Shown here piece after piece: positions 33,343 to 56,530 of a stretch of 64,000 bases of DNA (position 1 is its first letter; each line of letters begins with the position of its first letter). Where the stretch lies: assembly GCA_046160545.1 (NCBI GenBank), contig JBJXGS010000245.1, positions 25,280 through 89,279 on the forward strand, written 5' to 3'. The position numbers and the translations under genes are program-made. Under the pieces are notes generated by a model. The model did no database searches. It was not told the DNA's origin and saw only the letters and a program-made list of their open reading frames with translations. Source of the stretch: Burkholderiales bacterium (GTDB lineage: Bacteria; Pseudomonadota; Gammaproteobacteria; Burkholderiales; JAEUOS01).

Positions 33343-33347
33343 CGTTG

Positions 33348-34696: not shown

Positions 34697-34718
34697 ATGA
34701 GGCTTTCCATGGCGTCGA

Positions 34719-36436: not shown

Positions 36437-37198
36437 TTGCACCGCGTGAGCGACAGCCGCGCGCAGGCAGCGCTGCGATTTGCCGGGGTCGCCAAGCGCT
36501 ATGGCGAACATGCCGCACTCGCAGAGGTGTCTTTCGAGGTGATGCCAGGCGAATCCTTCGGCTTGGCCGGGGTCAACGGCGCAGGCAAGACAACGCTGAT
36601 CAAATGCCTTCTCGACCTGACCGCACCGGACGCGGGAGAGATCTCGATTTTCGGCGTTGTCGCAGGCCTGCATAGCGCGCGCGCGCGCCTGGCCTATCTG
36701 CCTGAGCGATTCATGCCGCCGCACTACCTCAACGGTCGCGAGTTCCTCGGCATGATGGCCGGGCTGCGCGGCGGCGCCTACGACGACGAAGCAGCGCGCC
36801 GCATGCTCGATCGACTCGATCTCGACACTGCAGCGCTGGCCAAACCGGTGCGCGACTATTCCAAGGGAATGACGCAAAAGCTGGGGCTCGCTGCCTGCTT
36901 CATGGCCGATTGCGACCTCCTGATCCTGGACGAGCCGATGAGCGGGCTCGACCCCAAAGCGCGCGCACGGGTCAAACACCTGCTCTCCGAGTGGCGCGGC
37001 AAGGGACGCACGCTCTTCTTCACCTCGCACGCGCTGGCCGACATCGAGGAAATCTGCGAACGGCTGGCGGTGCTGCACGGCGGCCAGCTGCGCTATCTCG
37101 GCGCGCCGCTCGATCTGGTGCAACAAAGCGGCGCGTCAAACCTTGAAAGCGCGTTCCTCGCGACCATCGGCGAGTCAATCGCAGCGCACCAGCCATGA
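36437..37198 (+). CDS. ABC ATP-binding protein (PilH/XapD-like), first gene of the filament cluster
   Basis: Walker A GVNGAGKT, signature YSKGMTQK, LLILDEPMSGLDP, FTSH; overlaps the next gene; start TTG 36437 or GTG 36446. Confidence 0.85.
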   Translation: MHRVSDSRAQAALRFAGVAKRYGEHAALAEVSFEVMPGESFGLAGVNGAGKTTLIKCLLDLTAPDAGEISIFGVVAGLHSARARLAYLPERFMPPHYLNGREFLGMMAGLRGGAYDDEAARRMLDRLDLDTAALAKPVRDYSKGMTQKLGLAACFMADCDLLILDEPMSGLDPKARARVKHLLSEWRGKGRTLFFTSHALADIEEICERLAVLHGGQLRYLGAPLDLVQQSGASNLESAFLATIGESIAAHQP

Positions 37199-38649
37199 GC
37201 CTGACGCCTCGTCCGAGCGTCCTTCTGGTTGACGACGACCCGCTGATCGTCGAAACCCTGAGCCTCGCCCTGGGCCACCGTTTTCACATCCAGAGCGCTA
37301 CGACGCGCGCAGATGCGATTGCCCTGTTGCGCGCCCTTCCCGAACCTCCGCCGCTGGCGCTGATTGACCTCGGCCTGCCGCCGACCCCGCACCTGCCCGA
37401 CGAAGGCTACCGCCTGACCACGGCTCTCCTGGCACTGGCTCCCCAGACCAAAATCGTGGTGCTCTCCGGACAGGCGGCGGAAGCGTCCGGCAGACATGCG
37501 CGTGCGCTGGGAGCGGTCGAATTCGTCGCCAAGCCGGTAAGCCCGGCGCAACTGATCCGCGTGCTCGAGGACGCGCTGGCGGCCGGGCAGGCGGAGTCCG
37601 CGGCCACCGTGGTCGCCGACCCGCTCACCGCGCTGATCGGCACATCGGCACCCATACTGGGACTGAAGACGCAGATACGCCTGGTGGCGACCTCGCCTTT
37701 TCCCGTCCTGATCGAAGGCGAATCGGGCAGCGGCAAGGAAGTTGTGGCCGGCGCGCTGCACGCCCTGTCAGGGCGCGGCGCGGCGCCTTACCTTGCTCTC
37801 AACTGCGCGGCGATCGCCCCGTCGTTGGTCGAGCCCACCCTGTTCGGCTATGCGAAGGGTTCGTTCACCGGCGCCGTCGGCGCAAAGGCCGGCTATTTCG
37901 AGGACGCTCGCGATGGCACCCTGTTCCTGGATGAAATCGGCGAATTGCCGCTGGAGTTGCAGGCCAAGCTTTTGCGCGTACTCGAGAATGGAGAGTACAA
38001 CCGCGTTGGCGAAACGCAGTCGCGCCGCTCACAGGCACGGGTGATCACTGCCACCAACCGCGACCTGCGCGCCAGCGCGCGCGGCGGGGGCTTTCGCGCC
38101 GACCTTTATCATCGCTTGTCCGTGTTCACGCTGCGCGTGCCGCCGCTGCGCGACCTGGGCGATGACAAGCTGGCACTGCTCGAGCATTTTTCGGCCATGT
38201 ATGCGCAAAAGGACGCTCGCCAGTTCACGTTGGACGCGCCTGCACGACGCCTGTGGCTCGAGTATCCGTTTCCGGGCAATGTGCGCGAACTGCGCAACGT
38301 GGTCATCCGCCTGGCCACTCGCTACCCGGGCCTGGTGCTGTCGGCCGAACAACTCGAGACTGAATTCGATTCCGGGGCCACGCTTGCGGCCGCGCCGTCC
38401 GGCGATGAAGTCGCGCGCGCCGCGTACGACGAACTCGCGCGACGCGGTGCATTCAATCTCGACACGCGCCTGGCGCACTGGGAGCGCGCCTACATCGCCG
38501 CGGCGATGCAGCTGGCCGCGGGCAACATCAGCCAGGCTGCGCGGCTTCTCGGCGTCAACCGCACCACCCTGTATTCGCGCATGGCAGCGCTCGAACGCAA
38601 CGCCGGGGCGGATGTACCGGAGCGCGACAACCCGCAGGGGAGAAGTTAG
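37195..38649 (+). CDS. Sigma54-dependent response regulator (REC-AAA+-Fis HTH), PrsR/PilR-like
   Basis: VDDD, DLGLPP.P...EG receiver loop, KP, GESGSGKE, GSFTGA, LFLDEIGE, FR.DLYHRL, PGNVREL.N, GN+SQAARLLGV.R.TLY. Confidence 0.93.
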   Translation: MSLTPRPSVLLVDDDPLIVETLSLALGHRFHIQSATTRADAIALLRALPEPPPLALIDLGLPPTPHLPDEGYRLTTALLALAPQTKIVVLSGQAAEASGRHARALGAVEFVAKPVSPAQLIRVLEDALAAGQAESAATVVADPLTALIGTSAPILGLKTQIRLVATSPFPVLIEGESGSGKEVVAGALHALSGRGAAPYLALNCAAIAPSLVEPTLFGYAKGSFTGAVGAKAGYFEDARDGTLFLDEIGELPLELQAKLLRVLENGEYNRVGETQSRRSQARVITATNRDLRASARGGGFRADLYHRLSVFTLRVPPLRDLGDDKLALLEHFSAMYAQKDARQFTLDAPARRLWLEYPFPGNVRELRNVVIRLATRYPGLVLSAEQLETEFDSGATLAAAPSGDEVARAAYDELARRGAFNLDTRLAHWERAYIAAAMQLAAGNISQAARLLGVNRTTLYSRMAALERNAGADVPERDNPQGRS

Positions 38650-40272
38650 ATGTACCTGAGTCATTTCGGCCTGTCCGAAGCGCCATTCCGCATCACCCCG
38701 CACACGGACTTCTTTTTCGACGGCGCCAATCGCGGCGCGACCCTCGAGGCGCTGCTCTACACGATCACCAACGACGAAGGCATCGTCAAGGTCACCGGCG
38801 AAGTCGGTAGCGGCAAAACCATGTTGTGCCGCGTGCTCATCGAGCGACTTCCGGCGCACGTGCAGACCGTCTACCTCTCCAGCCCGTCTCTTGGTCGCGA
38901 CGAAATCCTGCGTTCCATTCTCGACGACCTCAACGTGAGCGCCCCAGGGGAGCGTCCGGTCACGATACTGCGCGTACTTCAGGAGCATCTGATCGACTTG
39001 TACGGGCAGGGCCGGCGCGTCGTGGTGCTGATCGACGAGGCGCACGCGATGGCGCCGGAGACGCTTGAAGAAATTCGCCTGCTCTCCAATCTGGAAACCA
39101 AGCGCGAAAAGCTCATGCAGATCGTGCTCTTCGGCCAGCAGGAGCTGGACGACCTTTTGGGCATGCCGCAGATGCGCCCCTTGCGCGAACGCATCGTGCA
39201 CAGCTTTCGCCTGGAGCCGCTGGTGCGATCCGACATCGGCACCTACCTCATGTTTCGCATGCGCCAGGCCGGCTACAGGGGCCCGAACCTTTTCGCCGCG
39301 ACGGCGGTACGGCACATCGCCGAGGCCTCGCAGGGCCTGACCCGGCGCATCAACATCCTTGCCGACAAGGCACTCCTCTCGGCGTTCTCGGACGGCGAAC
39401 ACGAGGTCAATACGCGCCACGTCAAGGCTGCCGTGGCGGACTCCGAGTTCACGCGCCTCATCAAGCCGACCGCAAGACGCTTATCCCCCTGGGTCATGTG
39501 GGCCGGAGCACTGGGCCTCCTGGCCGCCGGCGCCGCGCTAACCATGATCGCCACGCGCTGGCATGATAGACCGCCAGCGCCGGCACCCGCTGCCTCATTG
39601 GCCCGCCCTCCCGAGCCTCCCGCTACGCCGGCCGCGGCAGCTCTGCCCGCGCCGGCCGCGGCGCAAGCCCCTTCCGGCGTGCTGCGCCCTGAAGCAACCC
39701 CCTCCGCGCCGGCTCAGGCGACAGGAGCCCCCCCGAGTACAGCCGGCCCGTCACCGGCACCGGCACCTGCACCTGCACCTTCGTCTGCACCTTCGACTGC
39801 ACCGACGGGCGCGCTCGCGCCAGCTGCTGTTGCGGCGAACGCTCCGAATGCGGCTGGAGCCGCACCTGTAGCATCGCCGGCCAAGTCCGCCCCCGTACCG
39901 CCCGGCGCGGCCGTCGGCGCCGTGTCACGCACGCCCAGACTCGATGCGCGCTTCACCGCCACGGACGCATGGTTAAAGGAAGCACCGGCGGATGCCTACG
40001 CGCTGCAACTTATGGCCATCGACCCGGTACGCACACGCGAACTCGACGATTGGCTGCGCCGAGTCCCGCCCGGAGTTCCCCTGGACCGTGTCTTCATTTT
40101 TGGCGCACGCAGCAGCCATTCCGATGCGCAACGGCTGCATGTTGTGCTCGGAACTTTCGCCAACCGAGATGAGGCGCTGGCCACGGCCAAGTCCCTGCCC
40201 CCCCAGTTCGCGAGCAACAAGCCGCAACTGCGATCACTTTCGAACATTCGCAGCCAGGCACTGCCGCGATAG
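38650..40272 (+). CDS. ExeA/MshM-like AAA ATPase with TM, Pro/Ala linker and C-terminal SPOR-like domain
   Basis: MYL.HFGL...PF..TP, TGEVGSGKT, IDEAH, LRERI, G..RRINILADKAL; C-terminal YALQL...V+LG.F..R.EA...LP. Confidence 0.88.
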   Translation: MYLSHFGLSEAPFRITPHTDFFFDGANRGATLEALLYTITNDEGIVKVTGEVGSGKTMLCRVLIERLPAHVQTVYLSSPSLGRDEILRSILDDLNVSAPGERPVTILRVLQEHLIDLYGQGRRVVVLIDEAHAMAPETLEEIRLLSNLETKREKLMQIVLFGQQELDDLLGMPQMRPLRERIVHSFRLEPLVRSDIGTYLMFRMRQAGYRGPNLFAATAVRHIAEASQGLTRRINILADKALLSAFSDGEHEVNTRHVKAAVADSEFTRLIKPTARRLSPWVMWAGALGLLAAGAALTMIATRWHDRPPAPAPAASLARPPEPPATPAAAALPAPAAAQAPSGVLRPEATPSAPAQATGAPPSTAGPSPAPAPAPAPSSAPSTAPTGALAPAAVAANAPNAAGAAPVASPAKSAPVPPGAAVGAVSRTPRLDARFTATDAWLKEAPADAYALQLMAIDPVRTRELDDWLRRVPPGVPLDRVFIFGARSSHSDAQRLHVVLGTFANRDEALATAKSLPPQFASNKPQLRSLSNIRSQALPR

Positions 40273-40567: not shown

Positions 40568-42520
40568 ATGGGTAGCACAGCATCGACAGCATGGCCACGC
40601 GCGCTCGCGTTGGCGATCGCGCTTGGCCTGGTAGGCTGCCAGCAGGCGCCGCTCCAACCTGCGCCTCAGCACATCAACGCAAGCGCGCCGGCCGCACCGC
40701 TAGGCGCCATACCGCCGCCGCTACTGTCCGCACCGCTGCCGCCCAAGCCGCAGGCGGCCAAGCGCCCTGAAACCTTCAGCGTGGTCGTCAACGACGTTCC
40801 GGTGCGTGAACTGCTGTTCGCACTCGCCCGCGATGCCCGCATCAATGTCGATGTGCATCCCGGCATTGCCGGCAACGTGACGATGAACGCGATCAACCAG
40901 ACCCTGCCGCAGATCCTCACACGGGTCGCGCGCCAGACTGACATCCGCTGGGAGATGGACGGACAAAACCTTTCGGTACTGCCGGACACCGCCTTCCTGC
41001 GCATGTACAAGATCGATTACGTGAACATGTCGCGAGTTGCCGACATCAACGTGAGTGTCTCCACCGAGATCGGCTCCACCGGCCGGGGCGCTTCCGCCGG
41101 CGGCGCGACTGGCGGCGGCGGCAGCAATTCCTCGACCACCGTGGTCAGCCAGTCGGCCAACCGCTTCTGGGACTCGCTATCGCAAAACGTCTGCTCGCTG
41201 GTCGCCGCGACCCGCGTGATCAGCCAGGAGGAGCGCGACGCGCTGCGCGCCCAGCAGCAGCGCGAGCGGGAAGACCGCGTCAACCTGGCGCGCGCAGTGG
41301 CCGGCGCCGGTGCCGGCGCGTCCCAGCTCGCCCAACAGATCGCCCCGGCCAGTTCGACCGCGGTCACACAGCCGCTGCAGATCAACTGTGCTCCGCAGAC
41401 CGGCACAGCCGCAGCGGTCTCGCTCAACAATCCGGCTATCGTCAATCGCGAGTCAGGCATCCTCTCGGTCTACGCCACGCAGCGCCAGCAGGAAAGGGTT
41501 CAGGAGTTCCTCGACCGCGTCATGCTCAGCGCGCGCCGCCAGGTCATGATCGAGGCGACCGTGGTGGAGGTTGAACTGAATTCCAGCTACCAGCAGGGCA
41601 TCAACTGGCAGCGCCTGCAGGCCGGCGGGGCCAGCGGCACGTCGATCACGGTGCAACCGACGGGCCCCAACTCCCTGCCGGGCGGCGCCGTACCCGGGGT
41701 GCCCGGAGCAGCGGTCAATGCGGTCACCTCCGGGCTTACCAATCCCGGCGTCACCGCGTCCGGCCTGCTGCAGATTGGCTACCTGAATCCGCGATCGCTT
41801 ATCGGCAACATCTCCGGCGCCATCACCCTGCTCGAATCCTTCGGCAAGGTGCGCGTGCTCTCCAGTCCGAAACTCTCGGTGCTCAACAATCAGACCGCGA
41901 TCTTGAAGGTCGTCAACAACCTGGTCTACTTCACCATCGGTGCAACGACCACGCCGGGATCGCTGGGCACGCCGGCGGTCACCACCTACACCTCATCGCC
42001 GAACACCGTCGCAGTCGGTTTCGTGATGGCGGTCACGCCGCAGATCGACGACCAGGACGCGGTGGCGATCAACATCCGCCCGACGATCTCGCGCATCATC
42101 CGCTACGTCAACGACCCGAGCCCGGCGCTGGCCGCCGCCGGCGTGGTCAACCCCGTGCCCGAGGTGCAGACCCGCGAAATGGAGTCCATACTGCGTGTCC
42201 CGAACCAGGCGATCGCGATCATGGGCGGCCTGATGCAGGATTCCAGCGGCGGTGCTGAAGACAGCGTTCCGGGTGTGAACCGGGTACCCTTCCTGGGCGA
42301 CCTGTTTCGCTACCGCAGCGACCAGCAGCGCAAGTCGGAACTGGTGATTTTCCTGCGCCCTGTCGTGCTGCGCGACCCGACCCTCGATGGCGATTTCCGT
42401 GAGTACCGCGACATGCTGCCGGGGAAGGACTTTTTCTCGCGTGCCAACCCGCTGGAGCCGGAACGCATTCGGCTGCGCAGCGAAACCTCGGCCGGCGCCG
42501 CAGGCGAAGCAACCCGCTGA
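40568..42520 (+). CDS. Lipoprotein secretin, MshL/GspD-like
   Basis: GGAGG RBS, lipobox LVGC, FS+VV..V....LLF.LARDA, QVMIEA.+VEV.L....GINW, VLSSPK....NNQ.A, VP.LG.LF, K.ELVIFLRP; start reassigned to ATG 40568. Confidence 0.92.
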   Translation: MGSTASTAWPRALALAIALGLVGCQQAPLQPAPQHINASAPAAPLGAIPPPLLSAPLPPKPQAAKRPETFSVVVNDVPVRELLFALARDARINVDVHPGIAGNVTMNAINQTLPQILTRVARQTDIRWEMDGQNLSVLPDTAFLRMYKIDYVNMSRVADINVSVSTEIGSTGRGASAGGATGGGGSNSSTTVVSQSANRFWDSLSQNVCSLVAATRVISQEERDALRAQQQREREDRVNLARAVAGAGAGASQLAQQIAPASSTAVTQPLQINCAPQTGTAAAVSLNNPAIVNRESGILSVYATQRQQERVQEFLDRVMLSARRQVMIEATVVEVELNSSYQQGINWQRLQAGGASGTSITVQPTGPNSLPGGAVPGVPGAAVNAVTSGLTNPGVTASGLLQIGYLNPRSLIGNISGAITLLESFGKVRVLSSPKLSVLNNQTAILKVVNNLVYFTIGATTTPGSLGTPAVTTYTSSPNTVAVGFVMAVTPQIDDQDAVAINIRPTISRIIRYVNDPSPALAAAGVVNPVPEVQTREMESILRVPNQAIAIMGGLMQDSSGGAEDSVPGVNRVPFLGDLFRYRSDQQRKSELVIFLRPVVLRDPTLDGDFREYRDMLPGKDFFSRANPLEPERIRLRSETSAGAAGEATR

Positions 42521-42541
42521 TACCATGGTGCGAGGCAAACC

Positions 42542-44056
42542 GTGAGCCTACTCATGGACGCGCTCAAGAAAGCCGAGCGCGCCAAGACCGGTGAGAACGA
42601 GCGGGACGCGGGTACTGGCGCGTCTCCCGGCGCGGTCCGCGACCTGGCTGCCGAACTCGGGCTTGAGGCACGTGCCGCTGCGCCGCGCCCGAGTCCGGTG
42701 GCTACCGCCACATCCAGGGCCGAAACGCAGGATTTCGCCTCTTCATTGACCTTGGAGCCACTCTCGCCACCGGCGCAAACCGCGCAAGCCATAGCTATCG
42801 ACCGACCGGCGAACCCGGCGCCCGGCGCGGCGACGGCCTCACCAGTGGCGAATCCGCGTCCCAGCGGCGCGCCGCGCGCCGACCGGCAGGGTCCGCCCAG
42901 TACGCCGGGCCCGGATCGCCTGGCCGCGCGCGCAGTGTTCGCCTCCAAGCAGCCGCGCGGTCGCACCATCAGCCCGTTCCACGCGACGCTCGCAGTCCTG
43001 CTCCTTGCATGCGTTGCCACGGCTGCCTATTTCTGGTGGCAGCTGCGCCCGGCGCCGGCGCCGCCGGCCAAGCCGCTCGCCGCCGGCCCCGTCGCCTCAC
43101 CTCCGAGCGCGTCCGAGCCGGTACGGGCCGCGCCGCAGACGCCGCCAACGACCGTGCTGGCTCCTGCGATCCCGGCTTCTTCCGCGCCGGCAGAACCGGC
43201 TGCGGTCGCGCCAATTGCGGCAGTGCCGGCGACGAGCGCGGGCGCCGCATCGACACCAGCAACCCATGCGCTGCAGGCAGCGCCTGCGACGCCGTTTCGC
43301 GCCGCCACGCCTGCTGCCACAGAGCCCGATGCAACCACAGCGCGCCCTGCAACGGCTGCCGCCAAGGCGCCTGTGCCGGTCGGCCCGCGATCACCCGCCC
43401 CGAGCGCATTCGCGCAGGGCGGCACGCCGGTGGAAGCGCCGACGGGACTGCGCATTACACGCGATCAGGCCCAGGCCAGCGTCGACCCGGCGGTCAACGC
43501 CGGGTACGCGGCGCTGATCGAGGGCAACGATACAGCCGCACGCGATCACTACGGACGCGCCCTTGCCAATGACCGCACCAACCGCGACGCGCTCTACGGC
43601 ATGGCGACACTGGCCGCGCGCGCGGGACGCCCCGAGGAGGCGCAGTCCTACTATCGGCGCGTTCTGGACCTGAACCCGCGCGATGCCTTTGCGCAGGCGC
43701 AGCTGAGCGTGCTTGCCGGCGGCGGCCAGGCCGTCGACGAAAGTCGTGTACGCGGCCTGGTCGCGCAGCAGACCGACGCGGCCGCAGGTGCGCCGCTTTC
43801 GTTCACACTCGGCAACCGCCTCGCGGCACAGGGCCGCTGGGCCGAAGCGCAGCAGGCCTATTTCAACGCCTATGCGGCCGAGCCGGATAATCCGGACTAC
43901 TGCTACAACCTGGCCGTCGCGCTGGATCAACTACACCAGAGCCGTCCGGCGAAGACTTACTACGAGCGCGCTTTGGACCTGGCGCAGAAGCGGCGCGCCG
44001 GCTTCGACGTCGAACGTGTTCGCACCCGCCTGGCTGCAATCGCCGCGCAGCCATGA
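42542..44056 (+). CDS. MshN-like TM + Pro/Ala linker + TPR protein
   Basis: MSLLMDALKKAE N-terminus, one TM, C-terminal TPRs (W.EAQ.AYF.A....P.N.DY.YNLAV.LD). Confidence 0.8.
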   Translation: MSLLMDALKKAERAKTGENERDAGTGASPGAVRDLAAELGLEARAAAPRPSPVATATSRAETQDFASSLTLEPLSPPAQTAQAIAIDRPANPAPGAATASPVANPRPSGAPRADRQGPPSTPGPDRLAARAVFASKQPRGRTISPFHATLAVLLLACVATAAYFWWQLRPAPAPPAKPLAAGPVASPPSASEPVRAAPQTPPTTVLAPAIPASSAPAEPAAVAPIAAVPATSAGAASTPATHALQAAPATPFRAATPAATEPDATTARPATAAAKAPVPVGPRSPAPSAFAQGGTPVEAPTGLRITRDQAQASVDPAVNAGYAALIEGNDTAARDHYGRALANDRTNRDALYGMATLAARAGRPEEAQSYYRRVLDLNPRDAFAQAQLSVLAGGGQAVDESRVRGLVAQQTDAAAGAPLSFTLGNRLAAQGRWAEAQQAYFNAYAAEPDNPDYCYNLAVALDQLHQSRPAKTYYERALDLAQKRRAGFDVERVRTRLAAIAAQP

Positions 44057-45792: not shown

Positions 45793-45808
45793 CCGCGAGG
45801 GCGCGCGC

Positions 45809-48603: not shown

Positions 48604-49280
48604 GGGATTTCCTCATGCAATTGCGCTGGAGCATCGCCGGGGCAGTCTTGCTGGCGATCGTCGGCGTGGCGACCGCGTACTACTTCCACCTGGACCAGCG
48701 TCGAGCGGCAGCTGAACTGGCGCTAGCGCGGGCCGCCAGCCTGGGTGCATCCGCGAACCTGGCCGCTGCGCACGCAGAACGCCAGGAGATTATCGAATTC
48801 CTGCCGCGTTATCGCGTGCTTGAACGCCTGGGTGCGTTCGGCGACGAGCGCCGCCTGGACTGGATCGAGCGCATGGACGCGATTCGGGACGAGCTCAAGT
48901 CGTCCCGCTTGACTTACACGATCGCGCCGCGCGGGCCGCTGCCGGAGCGGCCTGAACCTGCGGCGGGACTGGCCTACGAGGGCAGCCGGGTGAAGATCGA
49001 ATTCGATCTGCTGCACGAAGGCGACCTGTTCTACTTGTTGCGGCGTCTGTCGCAGCCGGTCATGGGCTTTGCCGAAATCCAGTCATGCGCGCTGCGTCGC
49101 GTGCCGCGCGCGAACGCGTCGGCCAGCCGCGACGAGGGGCGAGACGGCGAACCAAACCTGACCGGCGACTGCCAGCTCGACTGGGTTTCGCTGATTGCTG
49201 CACGTCCTGCCGAAGCCGCGACCGAACCGGCCGCAACCACCCCTGCCTCTGCAACACGGCCCCCTGGAGCCGGATCGTGA
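48600..49280 (+). CDS. PilO/GspM-like protein
   Basis: GTG overlaps the upstream stop; N-terminal TM, coiled coil, ERRLDW+E, LLHEGDL, C...R...C.LDW. Confidence 0.6.
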   Translation: MRDFLMQLRWSIAGAVLLAIVGVATAYYFHLDQRRAAAELALARAASLGASANLAAAHAERQEIIEFLPRYRVLERLGAFGDERRLDWIERMDAIRDELKSSRLTYTIAPRGPLPERPEPAAGLAYEGSRVKIEFDLLHEGDLFYLLRRLSQPVMGFAEIQSCALRRVPRANASASRDEGRDGEPNLTGDCQLDWVSLIAARPAEAATEPAATTPASATRPPGAGS

Positions 49281-49927
49281 GATACGCCACCGTGCTGCTG
49301 ATGGTCCTGGGGTGCGCGCCTGCGCTCGCCCAGACCGAGCCGCCAGCGCTGGAACCGCGCGCAGGGCGGCTCTTCTTCACCCCGGAGGAGCGCGCCCGCC
49401 TGGACACCCTGCGCGGCAAGACTTCGGTCACGGAAGTCGTCGAAGCGCCGAATACGCTGACGGTCAACGGCTTCATCGCGCGCAGCGGACACAGGCCGCG
49501 CCCCTTCATCGACGGCCGCGCGGTGCCTGCCGAGGGACTCTCCGGGCTCACCATCGCCACATTTCCCGGCGGCGCCATGCGCATTACCCAACCGGGCGGC
49601 CAAAGCATCAATGTCAAACCGGGGCAACGCGTGGACCTCAACGCAGGAACCGTGACCGAAGGCTACGACCTGCCCGGTCCCCGCTCGGACAAGGCGGCAA
49701 CCGGCCTGCCGGCGCAGTTTCTGGCTGCCAACATTCCGAAGGTTGAAGCGGCACCCAAAGTGAAGGCATCGCGCAAGGCAAATCGCGGCCAGGGCCGGCG
49801 CGCAAAAGCGGCCGCTAGCGGGCCGACAGCGCCTCCCCCCGCACAGGTCGCACCGCCTGCACCACCGCCGATGGGCGCCGCCGCCCCGGGAATTCCTCTG
49901 CCACTTCCGACGCCTACGCCGCGCTAA
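49277..49927 (+). CDS. Exported PilP/GspC/MshK-like protein
   Basis: GTG overlap; signal peptide, GRLFFTPEERARLD, +NG.+.RSG, +KPGQ; Pro-rich tail. Confidence 0.55.
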   Translation: MRYATVLLMVLGCAPALAQTEPPALEPRAGRLFFTPEERARLDTLRGKTSVTEVVEAPNTLTVNGFIARSGHRPRPFIDGRAVPAEGLSGLTIATFPGGAMRITQPGGQSINVKPGQRVDLNAGTVTEGYDLPGPRSDKAATGLPAQFLAANIPKVEAAPKVKASRKANRGQGRRAKAAASGPTAPPPAQVAPPAPPPMGAAAPGIPLPLPTPTPR

Positions 49928-49964
49928 GCGCCGCTTTGGCCCGGAAATTGCGCAGTATCGCCGC

Positions 49965-51452
49965 ATGCAGTTGGTCCGACTCCATAACCGGCGCAGTTCG
50001 CGCCCGCCGCTGCGTCGCGCCCGTGGCGCGACCCTGCTCCTTTTCGCGCTGCTCATCGTCATCGCCGGCGCCTGGATGGGTCTGCGGGTACTGTCGGGTA
50101 GTCCGAGGACCGGCGATGCTGCATCGCAGGCGCTGGCCGACGCGCGCGATGCGATCATCGGCGCGTCGATGCAGGGTACCGGTGCCGCCGTGGTTTTCGG
50201 CACGGTTTCAAGCCCGGGCAGGTTGCCCGCCCCGGACATCAGCCAGTGGGAGGGTGACTATGACGGTACCGTCGATCCCGCCTGCCTGACCAGCACCGGG
50301 GGGACCAGTCCCCTGGGCGGATCCACCAACAACGCAGCCAACCTGCGCTGCCTGGGTAGGCTGCCATGGCAGGACCTGGGGCTGGGCCGGTACGCGGGCG
50401 AACCGGTCAACGACCCGCGCGGCGTGATTCCCTGGTACGCGGTATCGGCAAATCTCGTGACGCGCTGCCGGGCGCTCAATCCCGGCGTGCTCGCCTCGAT
50501 CTACAGCGCGTTCGGCGGCACCAACTGCGGAAGCGTTGCGCAGCCGTATCCGTGGCTCACGGTGCGCGATGAAAAAGGCAATGTCGTGACCAGTCGCGCG
50601 GCAGCGATCTTCATCGTCCCTGGTCCGGCCCTGCCCGGCCAGACCCGCCCGACCGCCCCGCTGCAAACCGCTGCCGCCTACCTGGACACTGTGACGGTCG
50701 CGGCAAGTTGCGTCGCGCCCTGCGTGCCAGGCACCTACAACAACGCGGCGCTAAACCTGCCAAACGCAACCGGACTTTCGTTCATTCGCTGTGCGATTGG
50801 CAAGGTCGAATCGAACAATCCGAATTTTGCGCAACCCTACAATTGCAATGACCGCATCGAGTTCATCACCATCGACCAACTGATGGAAATCGCCGAACGC
50901 CGGGTCGCCGAGTATGCGGCGGGGAAGCTGCGCGCCTATTTCGCGGCAAACGCGTTCTTTCCTTTCGCCGCGCCGCACGATCCGGCCGCCGCCAGCGGTC
51001 GTGGCGAATGCCAGAGCGGGCTTATGCGCGGCCTGATCCCGGCCCTGGCCGAGACCAACCCTGGCGATGCGCAGCGCTGCACCCACGCGGCATTCGATAC
51101 GCTGCTTGATTCCTGGTTCAAGGACAACGTCGCAGTCAATGACAACGCATGGGGCGACTGGATCTATTACGCCGTCTCGCCCGGCTGCACCCAGCCTGGC
51201 CCGGCCTGTGGCGCCGGTGTCCTTGCCGTCGGCACGCAGACCGGGCTGCGCGCGCTGGTGATCGGCAGTGGAGCGCCGATCGCCGCGGCCCCATTCGCGC
51301 CTTCCAGGGGCGCGGCACAGGTGCGACCTTCGGCAAACCTGGCCGACTATCTGGACAGCGTAGTCAACGCCGACGGCAACAACGCCTTTGAAGCCAGCTC
51401 GCTGCCCACCCGCTCCGACTACAACGACAAGGTACTGGCGGTGTCGCCATGA
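49965..51452 (+). CDS. Large PilX/GspK-like minor pilin, Cys-rich
   Basis: Basic leader RRARG|ATLLLFALLIVI without Glu+5; AL.DAR.A+IG, RLP.PD, GRLPW.DLGL. Confidence 0.7.
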   Translation: MQLVRLHNRRSSRPPLRRARGATLLLFALLIVIAGAWMGLRVLSGSPRTGDAASQALADARDAIIGASMQGTGAAVVFGTVSSPGRLPAPDISQWEGDYDGTVDPACLTSTGGTSPLGGSTNNAANLRCLGRLPWQDLGLGRYAGEPVNDPRGVIPWYAVSANLVTRCRALNPGVLASIYSAFGGTNCGSVAQPYPWLTVRDEKGNVVTSRAAAIFIVPGPALPGQTRPTAPLQTAAAYLDTVTVAASCVAPCVPGTYNNAALNLPNATGLSFIRCAIGKVESNNPNFAQPYNCNDRIEFITIDQLMEIAERRVAEYAAGKLRAYFAANAFFPFAAPHDPAAASGRGECQSGLMRGLIPALAETNPGDAQRCTHAAFDTLLDSWFKDNVAVNDNAWGDWIYYAVSPGCTQPGPACGAGVLAVGTQTGLRALVIGSGAPIAAAPFAPSRGAAQVRPSANLADYLDSVVNADGNNAFEASSLPTRSDYNDKVLAVSP

Positions 51453-52315
51453 ACTCATGCCGCAATGCGTCTGGTTTCACCCTGGCCGAACTCGCCATTG
51501 TCGTGCTCATCATCGGCCTGGTCCTGGCCGGACTGTTGGGGCCGATCGGCGCGCAGTTCCAAATCGCCCAGGCGAGTTCCAACCAGGAGCGCCTGGACGC
51601 CGCGCGTGATGCGGTGATCGGCTTCGCGGTCGCAAACCGGCGCCTGCCCTGCCCGGACCGCACCGGTGACGGCGTGGAGGATCAGCGCGGTGGCGGCGAT
51701 CCGGCCACCTTCGGCTGCGCCGGCAACATCTACGAGGGTTTCCTGCCCTGGGCAACCCTGGGTCTGACACCGGGCGACTACTTTGCCACCCGGCTGCGCT
51801 ACCGGGTCAGCGCAGAGTTCACGCGCGCCAACGGCGACGCCAGCGCCGCGACCTGCGCGGTGACAGCACAAAACCCGAACGCCTGCACCTTCGAGAGTTC
51901 GGACACTGGCGACATCCCGGTCTGCCAGGCGCGCAACGGCTGTCCCGCGGGCGCAGCGGGCGCAGGCTGGCTCATGCGACCGTCTGCCGGACCGCCAGCG
52001 ACAGCCGGTGCCGCTTTCGTGATCGTCTCCCATGGCGCGAATCGCCTCGGCGGAACCGGCACTGATGGCACAGCCCTGCCAGCTCCTCCGGGCGGCACCG
52101 ACGAGGCGCTCAACGCACCGCTCATCGCCGGGATCGCGCCTGGCCCGCGCGCAACCGCCAATCCGTTCATGAGCCGGCCGATCATCACCGGCGCAGACGC
52201 GGCTGCCTGCGCCGACGCCGGCGCGACGCTGTGCAATTTCGACGATCAACTGACCTTCGTGGGCGCCGGTCTGCTGGTCGGCAGGCTCACCCAGGCTGGT
52301 GTGCGCCTGCAGTAG
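51449..52315 (+). CDS. Type IV minor pilin/pseudopilin
   Basis: G|FTLAELAIVVLIIG prepilin motif; RLPCPD, G.LPW.TLGL, +VSHG.N, FDD. Confidence 0.9.
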   Translation: MNSCRNASGFTLAELAIVVLIIGLVLAGLLGPIGAQFQIAQASSNQERLDAARDAVIGFAVANRRLPCPDRTGDGVEDQRGGGDPATFGCAGNIYEGFLPWATLGLTPGDYFATRLRYRVSAEFTRANGDASAATCAVTAQNPNACTFESSDTGDIPVCQARNGCPAGAAGAGWLMRPSAGPPATAGAAFVIVSHGANRLGGTGTDGTALPAPPGGTDEALNAPLIAGIAPGPRATANPFMSRPIITGADAAACADAGATLCNFDDQLTFVGAGLLVGRLTQAGVRLQ

Positions 52316-54026
52316 CGCCCAGCGCGCTCGGCGCGCGACTCACGAGAGCAAAACGCACGCAGCCCGGCCGGTTCTCCGCCAGTACCACTGCGAAGCCGGC
52401 AGCGCGCGCCAGCTGCGCCGACTGGTACAGGCCGATGCCCAAGCCGTTGGCCGACGCCACCGGGGCCTCGAACAACGCGCCGGCGATGCCGGCGGCCAGC
52501 GGCGAGCCGTCGTCGGTGACTGCGAATTCGACCGCGCCGGCACGGGCCACGAGGCTGGCGCGAATCACCAGGCCCGCATGCGCCGCGCGCTTTTGCAGCG
52601 CGTTCTGCAGGAAGTTGTCTGCTGCGCTATCGAATACCGACGCCGGAACGGGCAGGTCGAGCTCCAGCTGCGCCGGGGTCATCTCGACTTTTTGGCCAAC
52701 GTATTGCCGCGCCAGTGCCTCCCACCAGGCCGACAGCGCAATGAGTTGCCGGCTGTCCGTGTCGGGGGACACGAGCTTGCTCAGCGTGGCGGAAAGGCGC
52801 TGCTCGATCACCGGCAGCTGACGCTCGATCAAGGCGCGCATGGCGCGATCGTCGTGCAGAACCGCGGACGCCCCAATCAGGCCCTTGAGCGACTGCAGGA
52901 GGTTTTTCACGTCGTGGGTGACGCGCGCGCCGGTCTCGTGGACCGCGCGCAGGTATTGCTGCGCACGCAGCCTCTCTTCGCGCGCCTTGGCGCCGTAGAA
53001 CTCGACCGCCAGGCGCGCCAGCAGGCGCACATGCCAGAGGTGCGACGGCGCGAACGGCTCCATGCTCGCCACGTCAAGCCGGATGCTCGGACTGCCAGCC
53101 AGTGGTACCGGCAATTCGATCGCTTCGACATGGCGTCCGGTCAGACCCGCGCTGCCTTCGCTGCCGGCCCCGCTCCAGCACACGCCGACGACCACGCCCG
53201 ACTCGCACAACGCGGCCATGGCCGCGGCGAAAAACTTGCGTGCGTCGGCTTCGTCGCGATTGAACCCGGCCAACCGATCCAGCCAGACTTCGTGCGGCAG
53301 GCTGTAGGAAAGCAGGTACCGCGACACACCGATCGCAAGCATTCCTCCGGCACCGCCCGAGCCACGGCGCAACAGGCCGATCGCCAGCAGCAGTCCGGCA
53401 ACGGTAGCCAAGGTGATGGCCATGCTTTGCGCATAGCCGCGCTGCGTGAGCGTCATCACGGCGATGCCGAAGAACGCGACCAGGAGCAAACCGAAGAGGA
53501 TTGCGCTCGCGTACAGGACATCGAAGTCGCGCGGTGCGCCCGCGCGCAACTGACGCAGCGCGAGGACCGCGACCAGGAGCAGCAGCGCAACCAGCACCCA
53601 GATCGCCGCAGCGCGCGGCAATGCGCCTGTATCGAGCCCCGCAGGCAGCATCGAAGGCACCACCAGCATGAACATGAGCCCGGTGAGGAATACCAGCGCA
53701 GTTGCCAGCAGGCGGCGCTGCGCCGCACTACGCGCGGCGAATCCGCGCCCGGCGACCAGCGCGCCGAGAAGTGCAGTCCAGACCAGTTCAACCCAGGCGG
53801 CCGGAACCACCGCCAGCGCGACCGTGGCCGCCGCCAGGACCAGGCCGGCCCGCCACGACAAGCGACGGTCGCCAGGAACCAGCGGCTGCCACCACAGGAC
53901 CGCACCGAGGTGGGCCAGGAACAGCGGCGCCCGCCACGGCATGTCGTGCCCCGCCGCTGCGGCCAGGAGCAGGCCCAGGGCAAGCACGAGTGCCAGATTG
54001 TCGAGGCCAGCGAGCTTGGCGCGCAT
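52287..54026 (-). CDS. Multi-TM sensor histidine kinase, PrsK-like
   Basis: ~8 hydrophobic segments, H box THDVKNLLQSL, N box NFLQNA, DDG, GLGIGLY; start probably ATG 54026. Confidence 0.88.
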   Translation of the reverse strand: MRAKLAGLDNLALVLALGLLLAAAAGHDMPWRAPLFLAHLGAVLWWQPLVPGDRRLSWRAGLVLAAATVALAVVPAAWVELVWTALLGALVAGRGFAARSAAQRRLLATALVFLTGLMFMLVVPSMLPAGLDTGALPRAAAIWVLVALLLLVAVLALRQLRAGAPRDFDVLYASAILFGLLLVAFFGIAVMTLTQRGYAQSMAITLATVAGLLLAIGLLRRGSGGAGGMLAIGVSRYLLSYSLPHEVWLDRLAGFNRDEADARKFFAAAMAALCESGVVVGVCWSGAGSEGSAGLTGRHVEAIELPVPLAGSPSIRLDVASMEPFAPSHLWHVRLLARLAVEFYGAKAREERLRAQQYLRAVHETGARVTHDVKNLLQSLKGLIGASAVLHDDRAMRALIERQLPVIEQRLSATLSKLVSPDTDSRQLIALSAWWEALARQYVGQKVEMTPAQLELDLPVPASVFDSAADNFLQNALQKRAAHAGLVIRASLVARAGAVEFAVTDDGSPLAAGIAGALFEAPVASANGLGIGLYQSAQLARAAGFAVVLAENRPGCVRFALVSRAPSALGATAGAHQPG

Positions 54027-54049
54027 CTGGGCCGCATAATAAGCCCTCG

Positions 54050-54832
54050 ATGAACGCACGTCCGCATGGCCTGTCCCAGGCGCTGATACTGGCGCGCTAT
54101 ACGCTTCTGGAGGCGCTCAAGAGTCGCCTGGGCATGGTGGGGCTGGCGGTCTGCGCGGCCGCGCTGGGCGTGGCCGCCTTCATCGATGCGCTGGCCCTGA
54201 CCGACTCCGCAGGTATCCGCAACACGGTGCTGGCCGCGCTGCTGCGCGCTTCCGCTGTGTTTCTGGCCGCAACTTTCGTGATCACCGCGATGGTGCGCGA
54301 CGAGAACGATCGCGGCCTTGAACTGCTCTTGTCCCTGCCTCTTAGCCGCGCTACCTACCTCGGCGGGCGCTGGGCCGGGTTCTCATTGGCGAGCGGCCTG
54401 CTGGCGCTGGCCGACACTGCCGTCCTGCTGGTGATGGGCGCAGGTGCACCTGCCGCGGCCTGGGGGCTCGCGTTGATGCTGGAATTGTGGATCGTCGTCA
54501 GCCTAGCCCTGGCGTGCGTGCTGACATTTCGTCATGTTGTGAGCGCACTTGCGGCCGTCGCCGCGTTCTATATCCTGGCGCGCGTCATGACCTCCCTGAT
54601 CGCCATTACGTCCAGTCCGGTCGCACCGGCCGACGCATGGTCGTTTCGCATCTCAGCGGCGATGCTGCAAGTCCTGGCCGCACTCATGCCACGGTTGGAC
54701 ATGTTCGCCCCGAGCAGTTGGCTTGGCGGCCACGTGACCGCCGACCTCGTACCGCTCCTGATGCAGACCCCGGTTTACGTCGGCTTGCTGCTGCTGGTGG
54801 CCTATGTCGATCTGGCACGCCGCAATCGCTAG
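54050..54832 (+). CDS. ABC-2-type permease (PilI/XapB-like)
   Basis: ARYTLLEA..R, RD...R...LLLS.PLSR..YL.G+, ~6 TM, LMP.LD; start reassigned to ATG 54050. Confidence 0.8.
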   Translation: MNARPHGLSQALILARYTLLEALKSRLGMVGLAVCAAALGVAAFIDALALTDSAGIRNTVLAALLRASAVFLAATFVITAMVRDENDRGLELLLSLPLSRATYLGGRWAGFSLASGLLALADTAVLLVMGAGAPAAAWGLALMLELWIVVSLALACVLTFRHVVSALAAVAAFYILARVMTSLIAITSSPVAPADAWSFRISAAMLQVLAALMPRLDMFAPSSWLGGHVTADLVPLLMQTPVYVGLLLLVAYVDLARRNR

Positions 54833-54833
54833 A

Positions 54834-55571
54834 TTGCGCATCGGCCGCTCCGACGAGCGCTCCTGGCGTGCCGTCCCTGTGACCGCCTGGATCGCACTTT
54901 CGCTTTCAATCTGCCTGCAGCTCGCATTTGACGCCGCCCAGCCGCGCCCGGCGGCCACTGCTAATGCCCTGGGCCCGCCACCTTCGGCGGCTGCGATCCG
55001 GCTCGCAAGTCTGGGCGACCCACTGCCGATCGCCAAGGCGCTCAACCTCATTTTGCAGGCACACGACAACCAGCCGGGCAAGTCGATTCCGTTTGCGGAG
55101 CTCGATTACCCGATGCTCATTCGATGGCTTACGCGCATCCTCGAAATCGATCCGCGCGGGCCCTATCCGCTCTTTGCCGCAAGCCGCCTGTACGGCGAGG
55201 TGCCGGACGCCGATCGCCAGCGCCTGATGCTGGATTTCGTGTACGAGGAATTCAAGCGCAACCCCGATCTTCACTGGGCCGCGCTGGCCCATGCCGCGCA
55301 TGTGGCGCGGCATCGCCTGCGCGACCTTGAACGTACGCGCATTTACGCCAAGAGCCTGCGCGAAGAAACCTCCGCAGACCGGGTACCCGCCTGGGCACGC
55401 CAGATGGAAATCCTGCTGCTGGCCGACCTCGACGAAACCACTGCGGCACGTGTGCTCCTGGGTGCAATGATTGAAAGCGGTGGGGTACGTGACGCTACCG
55501 AACTTCGCTTTCTCATGACGCGCCTGACAGAGGCGGAGGCGCGACAAGGAAGCGCCAGCTCGCGACCCTGA
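54834..55571 (+). CDS. Membrane-anchored helical/TPR-like protein (PilG/XapA-like)
   Basis: N-terminal TM, LDY..L..WL..IL.+DP...YP, P.WA.QM; start uncertain (TTG 54834). Confidence 0.6.
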   Translation: MRIGRSDERSWRAVPVTAWIALSLSICLQLAFDAAQPRPAATANALGPPPSAAAIRLASLGDPLPIAKALNLILQAHDNQPGKSIPFAELDYPMLIRWLTRILEIDPRGPYPLFAASRLYGEVPDADRQRLMLDFVYEEFKRNPDLHWAALAHAAHVARHRLRDLERTRIYAKSLREETSADRVPAWARQMEILLLADLDETTAARVLLGAMIESGGVRDATELRFLMTRLTEAEARQGSASSRP

Positions 55572-55589
55572 CTGTCGAAATTTCGACAG
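55572..55589. promoter_or_regulatory. Perfect 18-bp palindrome, candidate enhancer (UAS) for a sigma54 activator
   Basis: CTGTCGAAATTTCGACAG (TGT-N10-ACA), ~100-120 bp upstream of the -24/-12 site. Confidence 0.7.
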
Positions 55590-55691
55590 AAATGTCATGA
55601 CGGCGTCATGATTTTCCCGTTGTGGACAGCAGCGGCCGGGTCAAGCCTTCTCCACGCCCGTGATACTTGCGCTGCGGTCAGGCCACTTGCG

Positions 55692-55707
55692 TGGCATGAG
55701 TCTTGCA
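55692..55707 (+). promoter_or_regulatory. Sigma54 (-24/-12) promoter of the pilin gene
   Basis: TGGCATGAGTCTTGCA matches TGGCAC-N5-TTGCW with exact GG-N10-GC spacing, ~80 bp before the ATG. Confidence 0.82.
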
Positions 55708-55787
55708 CATGTCTGCGTAGTTGTCCCGGTGCAGGTTTGCGTTACCCTGATGCAGCCCGGCGCCCAATCAATTTCCGGAGGGGTTTC

Positions 55788-56510
55788 ATGCGCAGGCAAC
55801 AAGGCTTCACCTTGGTCGAAATTGCAATCGTGCTGGTCATCATCGGCTTGCTGCTGGGCGGCATCCTGCGTGGCCAGGAGCTCATCCAGGGCGCTCGGGT
55901 GCGCAACATCATCGACCAGCAAAACGGCATCCGGGCGGCATTCTTCGCCTTCCAGGATCGCTATCGCTCCATTCCCGGCGACCTGGCTGCGGCGCAGGTG
56001 CAGCTGGTCGGCAACGGCGCCCTTGTGGCGACTGCGGGTCCCGGCAACGGCGCGGTCGCGGCAGCCGATTCATCCACCGCATTCCAGAACCTCACGGCGA
56101 CCGGCTTTTTGTCCTGCTCCGTGTGCAACGTCTCAGGCGCGGCATCGACGGCCTCGAATTCACCGACCAACGTCTACGGCGGTGTACTTCAGTTCGTGAC
56201 CGACGGCGCCGCGGCGCAAGGGGCTGCGATCGTGTTGGCCGGCGGCCAGACACGCCTCAACATCAAGACCGGCAATCTGGTTCCATCCAACGTGATGGGC
56301 GAAATCGACCTCAAGGCCGACGACGGCCAGCCCAACGCCGGCAATCTGCGTCTGTCGGCCTGGACTGCGGCCGGCGCGGCAGCACCGACGATCGCGGCCT
56401 GCGCGACCGGCATGGCGGCCCCGCCGACCATTTCCGCGTGGAACAACGGCCAGGCTGCCGCCCCGGGCGGTCCGATCGGTACCAACTGTGGCGGCTCCAC
56501 GTTGCTCTGA
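55788..56510 (+). CDS. Type IV pilin, probable major subunit
   Basis: GGAGGGG RBS; MRRQQG|FTLVEIAIVLVIIGLLLGGILRGQELI...FQDRY..IPGD; own sigma54 promoter; start reassigned to ATG 55788. Confidence 0.92.
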   Translation: MRRQQGFTLVEIAIVLVIIGLLLGGILRGQELIQGARVRNIIDQQNGIRAAFFAFQDRYRSIPGDLAAAQVQLVGNGALVATAGPGNGAVAAADSSTAFQNLTATGFLSCSVCNVSGAASTASNSPTNVYGGVLQFVTDGAAAQGAAIVLAGGQTRLNIKTGNLVPSNVMGEIDLKADDGQPNAGNLRLSAWTAAGAAAPTIAACATGMAAPPTISAWNNGQAAAPGGPIGTNCGGSTLL

Positions 56511-56530
56511 CGCACCCCGCCCCACTGCCG

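Follow-up and report, generated by a model that had tools for sequence, protein, structure and literature searches.

To our knowledge, pili of the mannose-sensitive haemagglutinin (MSHA) type have been known almost only from Vibrio and its kin. In the classification of type IV filaments by Denise et al. 2019, the mandatory genes of the corresponding MSH type are mshA, mshE, mshG and mshL together with mshM, and the system is described as a single locus without a prepilin peptidase (PMC6668835). In Vibrio cholerae, the genes occur in two operons, mshI-F and mshB-Q, with the order mshI-J-(K)-L-M-N-E by locus tags VC0399-VC0405, and the retraction ATPase PilT is unlinked and shared (PMC4624765). 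Here, a locus of 16 genes (g1 to g16, Table 1) was analysed in a window that corresponds to the whole stretch of 64,000 nucleotides located at positions 25,280 to 89,279 of contig JBJXGS010000245.1, in the genome of a Burkholderiales bacterium (GCA_046160545.1). This locus, which fills positions 36437-56510 of the window, probably encodes the type IV filament machine of a distinct and widespread sister subtype of MSHA, most likely an adhesive surface pilus, in which the pair g13-g2 would exert sigma-54 control over the pilin gene and to which an ATP-binding cassette (ABC) exporter tied to that gene has been added.

Two other groups of described systems are relevant to the genes that accompany the filament machine. 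The pilA gene of Pseudomonas, Xanthomonas and Geobacter is under the control of PilS/PilR and RpoN, a combination of membrane kinase, NtrC-type activator and sigma-54 pilin promoter that is also represented by Nps/Npa in commensal Neisseria (PMC7170775, PMC6528607, PMC2725144). In Myxococcus xanthus, with the arrangement pilA-pilG-pilH-pilI, the pilin gene and sigma-54 two-component regulators (PilS/PilR pairs) have as neighbours the genes of an ABC ATPase, of a polytopic permease and of one further protein, and a review states that experimental data on transport are lacking (PMC6060248). A similar arrangement is found in Geobacter, where the xap ABC genes lie beside pilA and near other pil genes and are associated with sugar export, xapD being described as a sugar ABC transporter (PMC5585712).

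Relation to MSHA pili

Scans with Pfam and NCBIfam models, together with the gene model, recovered all 16 genes that the original prediction had listed for this interval. Proxies of all five MSH-mandatory genes occur among them, namely a pilin with the N_methyl motif, T2SSE with MshEN, T2SSF, a secretin and AAA_22, and no Peptidase_A24 was detected. The locus shares with Vibrio cholerae MSHA an ExeA-like MshM, an MshL secretin, MshN with its tetratricopeptide repeats (TPR), MshE with an MshEN domain and the MshG platform, as well as an organisation as a single locus that has no prepilin peptidase and is unlinked to PilT. When secretins from clusters of this type are taken from other genomes, they obtain 255-275 bits with the MshL model TIGR02519 and pass its cut-off of 250.2 (e.g. 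274.8 for G162:C1:82104 and 264.2 for G104:C32); with these and the mandatory gene set, existing annotation pipelines would probably call the cluster MSHA and lump the two. Out of 400 genomes sampled from the class, 146 have a TIGR02519 match above cut-off, a tally that includes the unpublished genomes G141, G308, G039 and G296, and many of the cluster-bearing genomes hold a second, higher-scoring MshL gene.

The mandatory set, the scores of the sister secretins and the single locus without peptidase are also what would be expected of an ordinary MSHA pilus, in which the regulators and ABC genes would be functionally untied neighbours and nothing would separate the locus from the Vibrio system. 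This explanation is very improbable in view of the gene order, of the ATPase phylogeny, of the gene families involved and of the regulators being tied to the pilin promoter (see below). In the window type, genes are ordered M-L-N-E-G-g8-g9-g10, whereas canonical MSHA displays the order I-J-K-L-M-N-E-G. The latter corresponds to 14 canonical-type loci in which secretin, MshM, in some cases the TPR protein, ATPase, platform and pilins follow each other downstream of PilM-like, PilN-like ('INLYQP'), PilO-sized and small lipoprotein genes, in the same order as in Vibrio. When compared to window-type profiles, the ATPases of these loci score 320-495 versus 534-1086 for the window type and the platform proteins about 150-270 versus 207-632. 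None of the 14 has a match to the profiles of g1, g8, g9, g10, g13, g14 or g15, and neither sigma-54 two-component control of the pilin nor an ABC-2 module is found in any of them. Further differences concern the alignment proteins g8-g10, which have no sequence homology to their MSHA counterparts that hhalign can recognise, and the pilin-like genes, three here as opposed to the seven genes of mshB-Q in Vibrio (PMC4624765). Both locus types co-exist in some genomes, for example in G162 and G213, where they can be seen side by side (L102/L137, G162:C1:76326-112000; G213:C9, 72551 and 95925), and two MshL-type secretins are found in many others of the class sample.

A phylogeny of the assembly ATPase with MSHA-, PilB- and GspE-type sequences, one of the checks named in the original prediction, was computed by maximum likelihood (IQ-TREE quick search, LG+G4, unrooted) from 76 rows (83 hits less 7 identical copies), including every PilB/GspE-like paralogue of five genomes that passed the thresholds for search and coverage, plus three from the genome of the window itself. 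In this tree, the deep branches of which are not resolved and for which the label 'window type', having been set by profile score, is partly circular, all window-type ATPases (44 of the 76 rows) fall in one clade with a support of 100 in the Shimodaira-Hasegawa-like approximate likelihood ratio test (SH-aLRT) and a stem of 0.43, leaving the PilB and GspE paralogues outside. Ten of the 11 canonical ATPases form, with one paralogue, another clade (SH-aLRT 100) that no supported branch joins to the former. Gene order and co-existence in one genome are independent of the profile-score labelling.

These data indicate that the cluster is a sister subtype of MSHA and not a new class. The proposal of a self-contained locus that is neither canonical type IVa pilus (T4aP), type II secretion system (T2SS) nor MSHA is borne out by the ATPase clade and the gene order, and so is that of an uncharacterised subtype, as long as the latter is not taken for a class of its own. 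No publication describing this subtype was found in the literature on type IV filament classification, on MSHA in Betaproteobacteria or on MSHA and RpoN, a coverage that left out most subscription journals.

Distribution and synteny of the cluster

A scan for the platform protein in one genome per species yielded at least 419 confirmed relatives, of which the closest 80, with 58-81% identity, were taken. These best 80 of at least 419 all belong to uncultured metagenome-assembled genomes (MAGs) labelled Burkholderiales or Betaproteobacteria, or to unlabelled metagenome bins, and the expected presence of similar clusters in other Betaproteobacteria is thus confirmed, the cluster being common in betaproteobacterial MAGs. 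In the 80 loci, as far as each contig extends, the 16 genes are arranged and oriented as in the window, the kinase gene being in each case on the strand opposite to the others.

Profiles built for each gene from the orthologues of the 80 loci were then used on further loci. A g8 homologue occurs in 69 of the 400 class genomes (a tally including the unpublished G308 and G039), corresponding to 40 coded families besides the window's own. Among 40 loci fetched from the class sample, 35 display the order secretin-TPR-ATPase-platform-g8-g9, a few of these being cut before the secretin; the exceptions are L112-L115, which have no TPR match, and L117, which has g8 and g9 only. Upstream, genes for the regulator and MshM are present in the majority of these 40; downstream, about half have the kinase, the permease and g15.

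Occurrence of the accessory genes was counted in 120 loci with score thresholds that we set for each profile. Where at least 9.3 kb were available downstream of the platform gene (68 loci), kinase genes occur in 52, permease genes in 50 and g15 genes in 47, with three cases of a permease without g15 and none of the reverse. Where the same length was available upstream (57 loci), ABC ATPase, regulator and MshM occur together in 44 and the last two without the ATPase in 10. In the 31 loci satisfying both, ABC ATPase, permease, g15, regulator and kinase are found together in 28. According to this neighbourhood survey, the association of ABC and two-component genes with the core extends to other genomes, a point on which the original prediction depended.

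Beyond the class, the ATPase was detected at E <=1e-150 in 50 of 401 genomes sampled from the phylum. Sixteen places were fetched, none of which has the kinase and only one the regulator, in a genome of the same order as the window. The order permease-g15-pilin-ATPase is found in three loci of other classes (L171, L182 and L184) and permease-g15 in two (L174 and L178). Many of the related ATPases in other classes lie in frames of 900-1000 residues with a long N-terminal extension (L175, 6006-8792; L178, 10715-13540; L179, 6525-9191), and some of these genomes carry two or three ATPase copies.

Core machinery and pilins

The assembly ATPase g6 is an MshE-like protein carrying a predicted MshEN domain for the binding of cyclic di-guanosine monophosphate (c-di-GMP), which scores 65.4 bits with NF053729 (cut-off 38) and matches the structure of the MshE N-domain (5htl, E 1e-12). 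This MshE-related motif passes its cut-off; NCBIfam equivalog cut-offs are reached by none of the core proteins. In g3, a single transmembrane helix at residues 282-300 is followed by a Pro/Ala-rich linker and a C-terminal periplasmic domain. Very long Pro/Ala-rich linkers after a transmembrane segment are seen both in g3 (39500-40272) and in g5 (42542-43500), and the last ca. 100 residues of g3 look SPOR-like by eye, with no Pfam model at E <=0.1. The LVGC lipobox of the secretin g4 was identified by eye.

Among the three genes that had been described as alignment-like, g8 is supported by its structural neighbours in the ESM Atlas, which are PilM_2, PilN and GspL clusters (TM-score by query 0.45-0.57), and g9 and g10 by size, topology and position, from which we infer that both complete the alignment complex. 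Relatives of g9 in the protein database number 54, none of which is named or has a Pfam domain. As for the two minor pilins of the original prediction, g12 is one by its N_methyl motif, and g11 belongs to no family and has a pilin-like hydrophobic N-terminus without Glu5 ('RQRGA-LL-ALL') that is kept in its orthologues; its nearest named cluster in the ESM Atlas is N_methyl (0.94, a lead only), and g11 may be a Glu5-less tip pilin. Both g12 and the major pilin g16 carry the class III signal. The N-terminal helix of g16 (GFTLVEIAIVLVIIGLLLGG-LKGQE) hardly varies between the window and other classes, and this near-invariance holds for ca. 35 N-terminal residues. A model of g16 by AlphaFold2 (AF2) adopts a type IV pilin fold with a predicted local distance difference test (pLDDT) of 74 and low-confidence stretches at 141-153 and 206-232. 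Its best match in the PDB is a large type IVb pilin (9iuf, E 6e-4, TM-score 0.44-0.50), T2SS pseudopilins being matched at E >3 only, which weakly supports a pilus over a pseudopilus.

This point bears on a second explanation, by which the locus would be a secretion machine that pushes substrates through the secretin by means of a T2SS-like pseudopilus instead of displaying a surface pilus. Its appeal lies in the likeness of g8 to the PilM-PilN fusion of GspL type, in the GspK-like appearance (by eye) of the g11 N-terminus, in the ExeA-like g3 and in similar c-di-GMP-binding ATPases having also been associated with T2SS (PMC4624772). We consider it improbable, since the products score below cut-off with GspD (154 for 351), GspE (520 for 630.25) and GspF (312 for 424), no GspC-like gene occurs at the locus and the pilin-like genes are three and not five. 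The length of the pilin (240 residues) and its model further argue against it, as does the lack of conserved candidate substrate genes beside the locus, whose flanks are housekeeping genes (mla on one side, kef/kdsD-lpt-rpoN on the other). A T4aP identity was also tried and rejected: scores are below cut-off for PilB (523 for 675.65) and PilQ (109 for 284), no PilT is found at the locus and a separate PilB-like gene resides on contig C93.

As predicted, the Pfam and NCBIfam scan detected neither a prepilin peptidase (Peptidase_A24) nor PilT within the locus, and both are to be sought elsewhere. The only Peptidase_A24 match of the genome adjoins the PilB-like gene on C93, and the genome also contains a GspE-like gene (C65), another ATPase (C160) and four PilT-sized ATPases, so that the missing peptidase and any retraction motor can be supplied in trans. 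For the MSHA-sister pilus favoured here, T4aP genes elsewhere in the genome would provide both.

Regulation of the pilin gene

The pilin gene had been described as separately promoted, which agrees with the sigma-54 element detected upstream of g16. When one mismatch is allowed, 30 of the 36 related loci possess such a site 52-97 nt ahead of the pilin gene. The background, obtained from 111 sites over 2.48 Mb of sequence, is 0.045 per kb and strand. Seventeen other upstream regions, corresponding to 15 genes and two flanks, were scanned in the same way: the site was found in no locus for eleven of them, in one locus for four and in 5 of 34 for g11, the kef flank having no testable locus. The sites ahead of g11 are confined to the closest relatives, and the one in the window has no palindrome upstream. 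For distant loci, two mismatches were tolerated outside an invariant GG and GC, which corresponds to a background of 0.20 per kb and strand; in these, the site precedes 4 of 6 pilin genes accompanied by kinase and regulator, and none of 9 where one or both are missing.

A second motif, the palindrome TGTCG-N6-CGACA, is associated with this promoter. Out of 180 sigma-54-like sites in the window and the 120 loci, 31 have the palindrome (one mismatch allowed) within 220 nt upstream, and 28 of these, in the window and 27 loci, are situated just downstream of g15 at the start of the pilin gene; two others are before g11 and one is unexplained. At the 28 pilin promoters, it lies 55-130 nt upstream of the -24 element with spacings that cluster at ca. 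65-68 and 87 nt, and it often occurs as two copies 20 nt apart (background 0.049 per kb). Away from any pilin gene, a sigma-54-like site with an upstream palindrome was also observed in L085 (about 5000-5115), which might point to a further member of the regulon.

The argument for regulation is based on the position of these motifs, on their conservation and on their co-variation with the regulators, and it is in these three respects that the locus agrees with PilS/PilR-type function, a sigma-54 promoter and an upstream site standing before the pilin gene and a kinase/NtrC pair being linked to it. From these motifs, g13/g2 are better read as a PilS/PilR analogue that would act on the pilin promoter: the multi-spanning kinase g13 would phosphorylate the NtrC-type g2, which would bind the palindrome, its predicted site, and activate the sigma-54 promoter ahead of the major pilin gene g16. 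Unlike described PilS/PilR systems, the pair sits in an MSHA-type locus, has TGTCG-N6-CGACA as predicted motif, and includes a kinase with 7-8 hydrophobic segments and a low-scoring PrsK-like C-terminal part. These segments and their short loops point to a signal sensed within the membrane, and by analogy with PilS the leading guess is that g13 may sense the pool of unassembled pilin in the membrane.

The kinase and regulator had been presented as a PrsK/PrsR-like pair, an assignment that does not hold. With PrsK (TIGR02916), g13 reaches 37.8 bits for a cut-off of 300, over the C-terminal third of the model only, and ranks 35 among the 40 kinase matches of its own genome; g2 scores alike with PrsR (TIGR02915, 316.3 for a cut-off of 502.6) and with NtrC (312.2, also below cut-off). 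The true PrsK is encoded full-length on another contig (G000:C252:20387-22429, 836.9 bits), which suggests that a separate PEP-CTERM/exosortase system, unrelated to the locus, exists elsewhere in the genome. What is common to PrsK/PrsR and g13/g2 is the association of a multi-spanning kinase with a sigma-54 activator, whereas the scores are below cut-off and the conserved target here is a pilin promoter. The best NCBIfam names of g2, g3, g5 and g13 all derive from models of the PEP-CTERM system, at sub-threshold scores.

The ABC module

The genes g1, g14 and g15 correspond to the ABC module that had been compared to PilGHI and Xap, a comparison that holds at the level of architecture. In the window, 17 kb separate the ABC ATPase gene from the permease gene, the two being towards opposite ends of the locus, and the trio is therefore split, whereas six other loci (L104, L109, L125, L171, L182 and L184) have the genes of the permease, g15, the pilin and the ABC ATPase in one uninterrupted row. 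The split position in the window is a lineage-specific rearrangement. Other differences from PilGHI and Xap are the host machine, which is of MSHA type and not a T4aP, and the g15 family, which is devoid of annotation.

The g15 product has 740 relatives in the database; among the 120 listed, Pfam domains are absent throughout and any name given is 'hypothetical'. Its AF2 model (pLDDT 91) consists of a transmembrane helix and an all-helical repeat domain for which Foldseek returned nothing from the PDB at E <=0.001, generic TPR proteins being the only matches (best E 0.05). Positive residues seen by eye ahead of the helix suggest that the helical domain is periplasmic. Prediction of a g14-g15 complex gave a score of 0.39 with 0.00 for the best control, runs that share at least 69% of contacts and a pLDDT of at least 69 for the partner. 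Out of 80 solved complexes, 58 attain the mark used for such predictions, as do 2 of 110 mismatched pairs, and passing scores of 0.60 or less were obtained for only 7 of the 80 solved complexes and for both of the mismatched pairs that passed. Support for this complex is weak.

By analogy with PilGHI, g1, g14 and g15 would most likely constitute one exporter that is genetically tied to the pilin gene, composed of the g1 ATPase, the g14 permease and g15 as a periplasmic helical-repeat protein. Mutants in pilGHI were reportedly found by Wu et al. in 1998 to be without pili. As a working guess, we propose that the module assists the biogenesis of the pilin or the pilus and does not serve an export unrelated to it. 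It may otherwise be a passenger that exports, for example, polysaccharide or lipid, and is linked to the pilus by shared regulation or history only. In favour of a passenger are the best models of g1, which are exporters of DrrA/NodI/GldA type, the description of the related Geobacter XapD as a sugar transporter (PMC5585712), the absence of the module from some members of the subtype and the low score of the g14-g15 complex. A passenger would not explain the position of the trio beside the pilin gene across classes, in the same order in L171, L182 and L184, nor the total absence of g15 without permease in the 68 loci, and the Pfam and NCBIfam scan detected no glycosyltransferase or polysaccharide genes in the locus. 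On balance, we regard the passenger as rather unlikely and keep to an exporter tied to the pilin.

Gene organisation and genomic context

Fifteen of the 16 genes are on the plus strand and the histidine kinase gene g13 is on the minus strand, a point that the original prediction had not stated. The G+C content of the window is ca. 65%, because of which long spurious frames abound, and the gene model was set by start-codon context and homology. Genes are tightly coupled, by overlaps of 1 or 4 nt or gaps of at most 37 nt, except for g3/g4, g13 and g15/g16. The 3' end of g13 converges on g12 with an overlap of 29 nt (52287-52315), and its 5' end diverges from g14 and abuts or overlaps the start of the permease gene (54026-54059). 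Since g13 is antisense to the flow of the operon, transcription of g14 and g15 requires either a promoter that lies within the kinase gene or past it, or antisense read-through. The inversion of g13 is kept in every kinase-bearing locus, a hint that transcriptional interference may contribute to the control. A scan of 36900-56899 for sigma-70 promoters and terminators returned 2 and 11 candidate sites, respectively, numbers that shuffled sequences also reach.

Table 1. Genes and putative control elements of the filament locus (window coordinates, scores in bits)
Feature	Position	Strand	Assignment	Supporting features
g1	36437..37198	+	ABC ATPase, DrrA/NodI-like	PF00005 81; TIGR01188 153.9, below cut-off
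g2	37195..38649	+	NtrC-family sigma-54 activator, response regulator	Response_reg, Sigma54_activat (202.6), HTH_8
g3	38650..40272	+	ExeA/MshM-type AAA ATPase	AAA_22 97.6; TIGR03015 212.6 (cut-off 324.5)
g4	40568..42520	+	MshL-type secretin, probable lipoprotein	PF00263 Secretin 116, Secretin_N_2; TIGR02519 239.4 (cut-off 250.2)
g5	42542..44056	+	TPR protein, MshN position	Several TPR Pfam models at residues 319-483; one transmembrane segment, 146-164
g6	44053..45792	+	Assembly ATPase with N-terminal c-di-GMP-binding motif (MshEN)	T2SSE 418.7; MshEN (PF05157) 53.7
g7	45809..47017	+	Platform protein, GspF/PilC family	T2SSF 168; GspF model 312 (cut-off 424)
g8	47017..48603	+	PilM-PilN fusion-like (MshI/GspL-like) alignment protein	One transmembrane segment, 312-330
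g9	48600..49280 (start 48600 or 48615)	+	Bitopic protein, PilO/MshJ position	N-terminal transmembrane segment
g10	49277..49927	+	Probable lipoprotein, PilP/MshK position	Start and lipobox by eye
g11	49965..51452	+	Large pilin-like protein without Glu5	Tip/GspK-like by eye
g12	51449..52315	+	Minor pilin	N_methyl 24.3; GFTLAE motif
g13	52287..54059 (start 54059, 54026 or 53942)	-	Membrane-embedded histidine kinase	HATPase_c 22; 7-8 hydrophobic segments
g14	54050..54832	+	ABC-2 type permease	6 hydrophobic segments; ABC2_membrane_5/2/3 21-23, below cut-offs
g15	54834..55571 (start 54804 or 54834)	+	Bitopic protein, ABC-module accessory	One transmembrane helix, TPR-like all-helical domain
g16	55788..56510	+	Major pilin, 240 residues	Short leader, GFTLVE; N_methyl 34.3; own sigma-54 promoter
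Possible second sigma-54 -24/-12 element	49937..49951	+	Ahead of g11, weak	TGGCCCGGAAATTGC, 1 mismatch
Palindrome TGTCG-N6-CGACA	55573..55588		Putative enhancer (upstream activating sequence) for g2	TGTCGAAATTTCGACA, perfect match
Pilin sigma-54 -24/-12 promoter	55692..55706	+	82 nt upstream of g16 start	TGGCATGAGTCTTGC

The cluster is directly flanked by an operon with mlaF, mlaE, mlaD, mlaA-like and mlaC-like genes (32716-36322, minus strand). The MlaF gene is found by tblastn beside the cluster in nearly all related loci that reach that far (58-83% identity), which indicates that the pilus locus occupies a fixed chromosomal place among genes for envelope maintenance. On the other side, a CPA2 (Kef-type) transporter gene is followed by kdsD, lptA, lptB and rpoN, and two more open frames are present at 59678-60816. 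The rpoN gene (62166-63599, plus strand; NF004598 691.7 bits, above cut-off) is located 5.7 kb downstream of the cluster in its usual kdsD...lptA-lptB-rpoN row, and the sigma factor needed by the pilin promoter is thus encoded nearby. Six DNA sequencing runs from two studies of biofilter metagenomes contain the organism of the window, and no RNA run was among those listed.

Overall reading

Several observations weigh against a regulated and ABC-equipped sister subtype of MSHA. The secretin g4 falls just under the MshL equivalog cut-off. No Pfam or NCBIfam family is matched by g9, g10 or g11, as is also the case for g8 and g15, and alignment of g8, g9 and g10 with canonical MshI1, MshI2, MshJ and MshK by hhalign gave best probabilities of 26.7% (g10 with K) and 10.9% (g8 with I2), from canonical alignments that held only 4-6 rows. 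No recognisable sigma-54 site precedes the pilin gene in 6 of the 36 near loci, some of which may be cross-hits to other pilin genes, nor in 2 of the 6 distant loci with regulators, and over the entire window the motifs occur as often as expected by chance (90 sigma-54-like sites for 88.5 expected; 3 palindromes for 4.0 expected). In 10 of the 68 loci with sufficient downstream sequence, kinase, permease, g15 and pilin are all missing. Among loci labelled Rhodocyclaceae, L046 and L056 keep the kinase (and L056 also the regulator) without ABC genes as far as the loci reach, and L045, which stops ahead of the position of the kinase and permease, is devoid of g1, so that the ABC module is not essential to every member. 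Finally, the source genome is a MAG spread over 338 contigs, with a completeness of 95.8% and a contamination of 7.2%, and the cluster is described here from its DNA sequence.

The Rhodocyclaceae loci, which have regulators without ABC genes, and the loci of other classes, which have ABC genes without regulators, indicate two separable add-ons on one conserved core. As a bolder and rather doubtful proposal, the cluster might represent a large 'MSH-2' family of type IV filaments in which the ABC-2 exporter and g15 would be a dedicated module for handling or modifying pilin, and in which the lipid-embedded kinase would gauge the membrane pool of pilin and set its transcription through the TGTCG-N6-CGACA enhancer.

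Conclusions

The locus described here is a real, coherent and widespread system with a testable regulon and an unexplained transporter. Among environmental Burkholderiales-like bacteria the subtype is frequent, and it extends further, as it occurs in 69 of 400 class genomes and in other classes. The organism of the window is present in metagenomes of biofilters, a habitat where attachment matters. The proteins specific to the subtype, g8-g11 and g15, all belong to unnamed families, and kinase, activator, enhancer motif, sigma-54 promoter and pilin make up a compact and fully specified candidate regulon. Lineages with and without the ABC module, or with and without the regulators, offer a natural 'deletion series' that could show the role of ABC transporters adjacent to pilin genes. 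If the 'MSH-2' proposal were true, a large family of type IV filaments that experiments have left untouched would here be described for the first time, and transporters of PilGHI type would gain the function that has been missing since their discovery.

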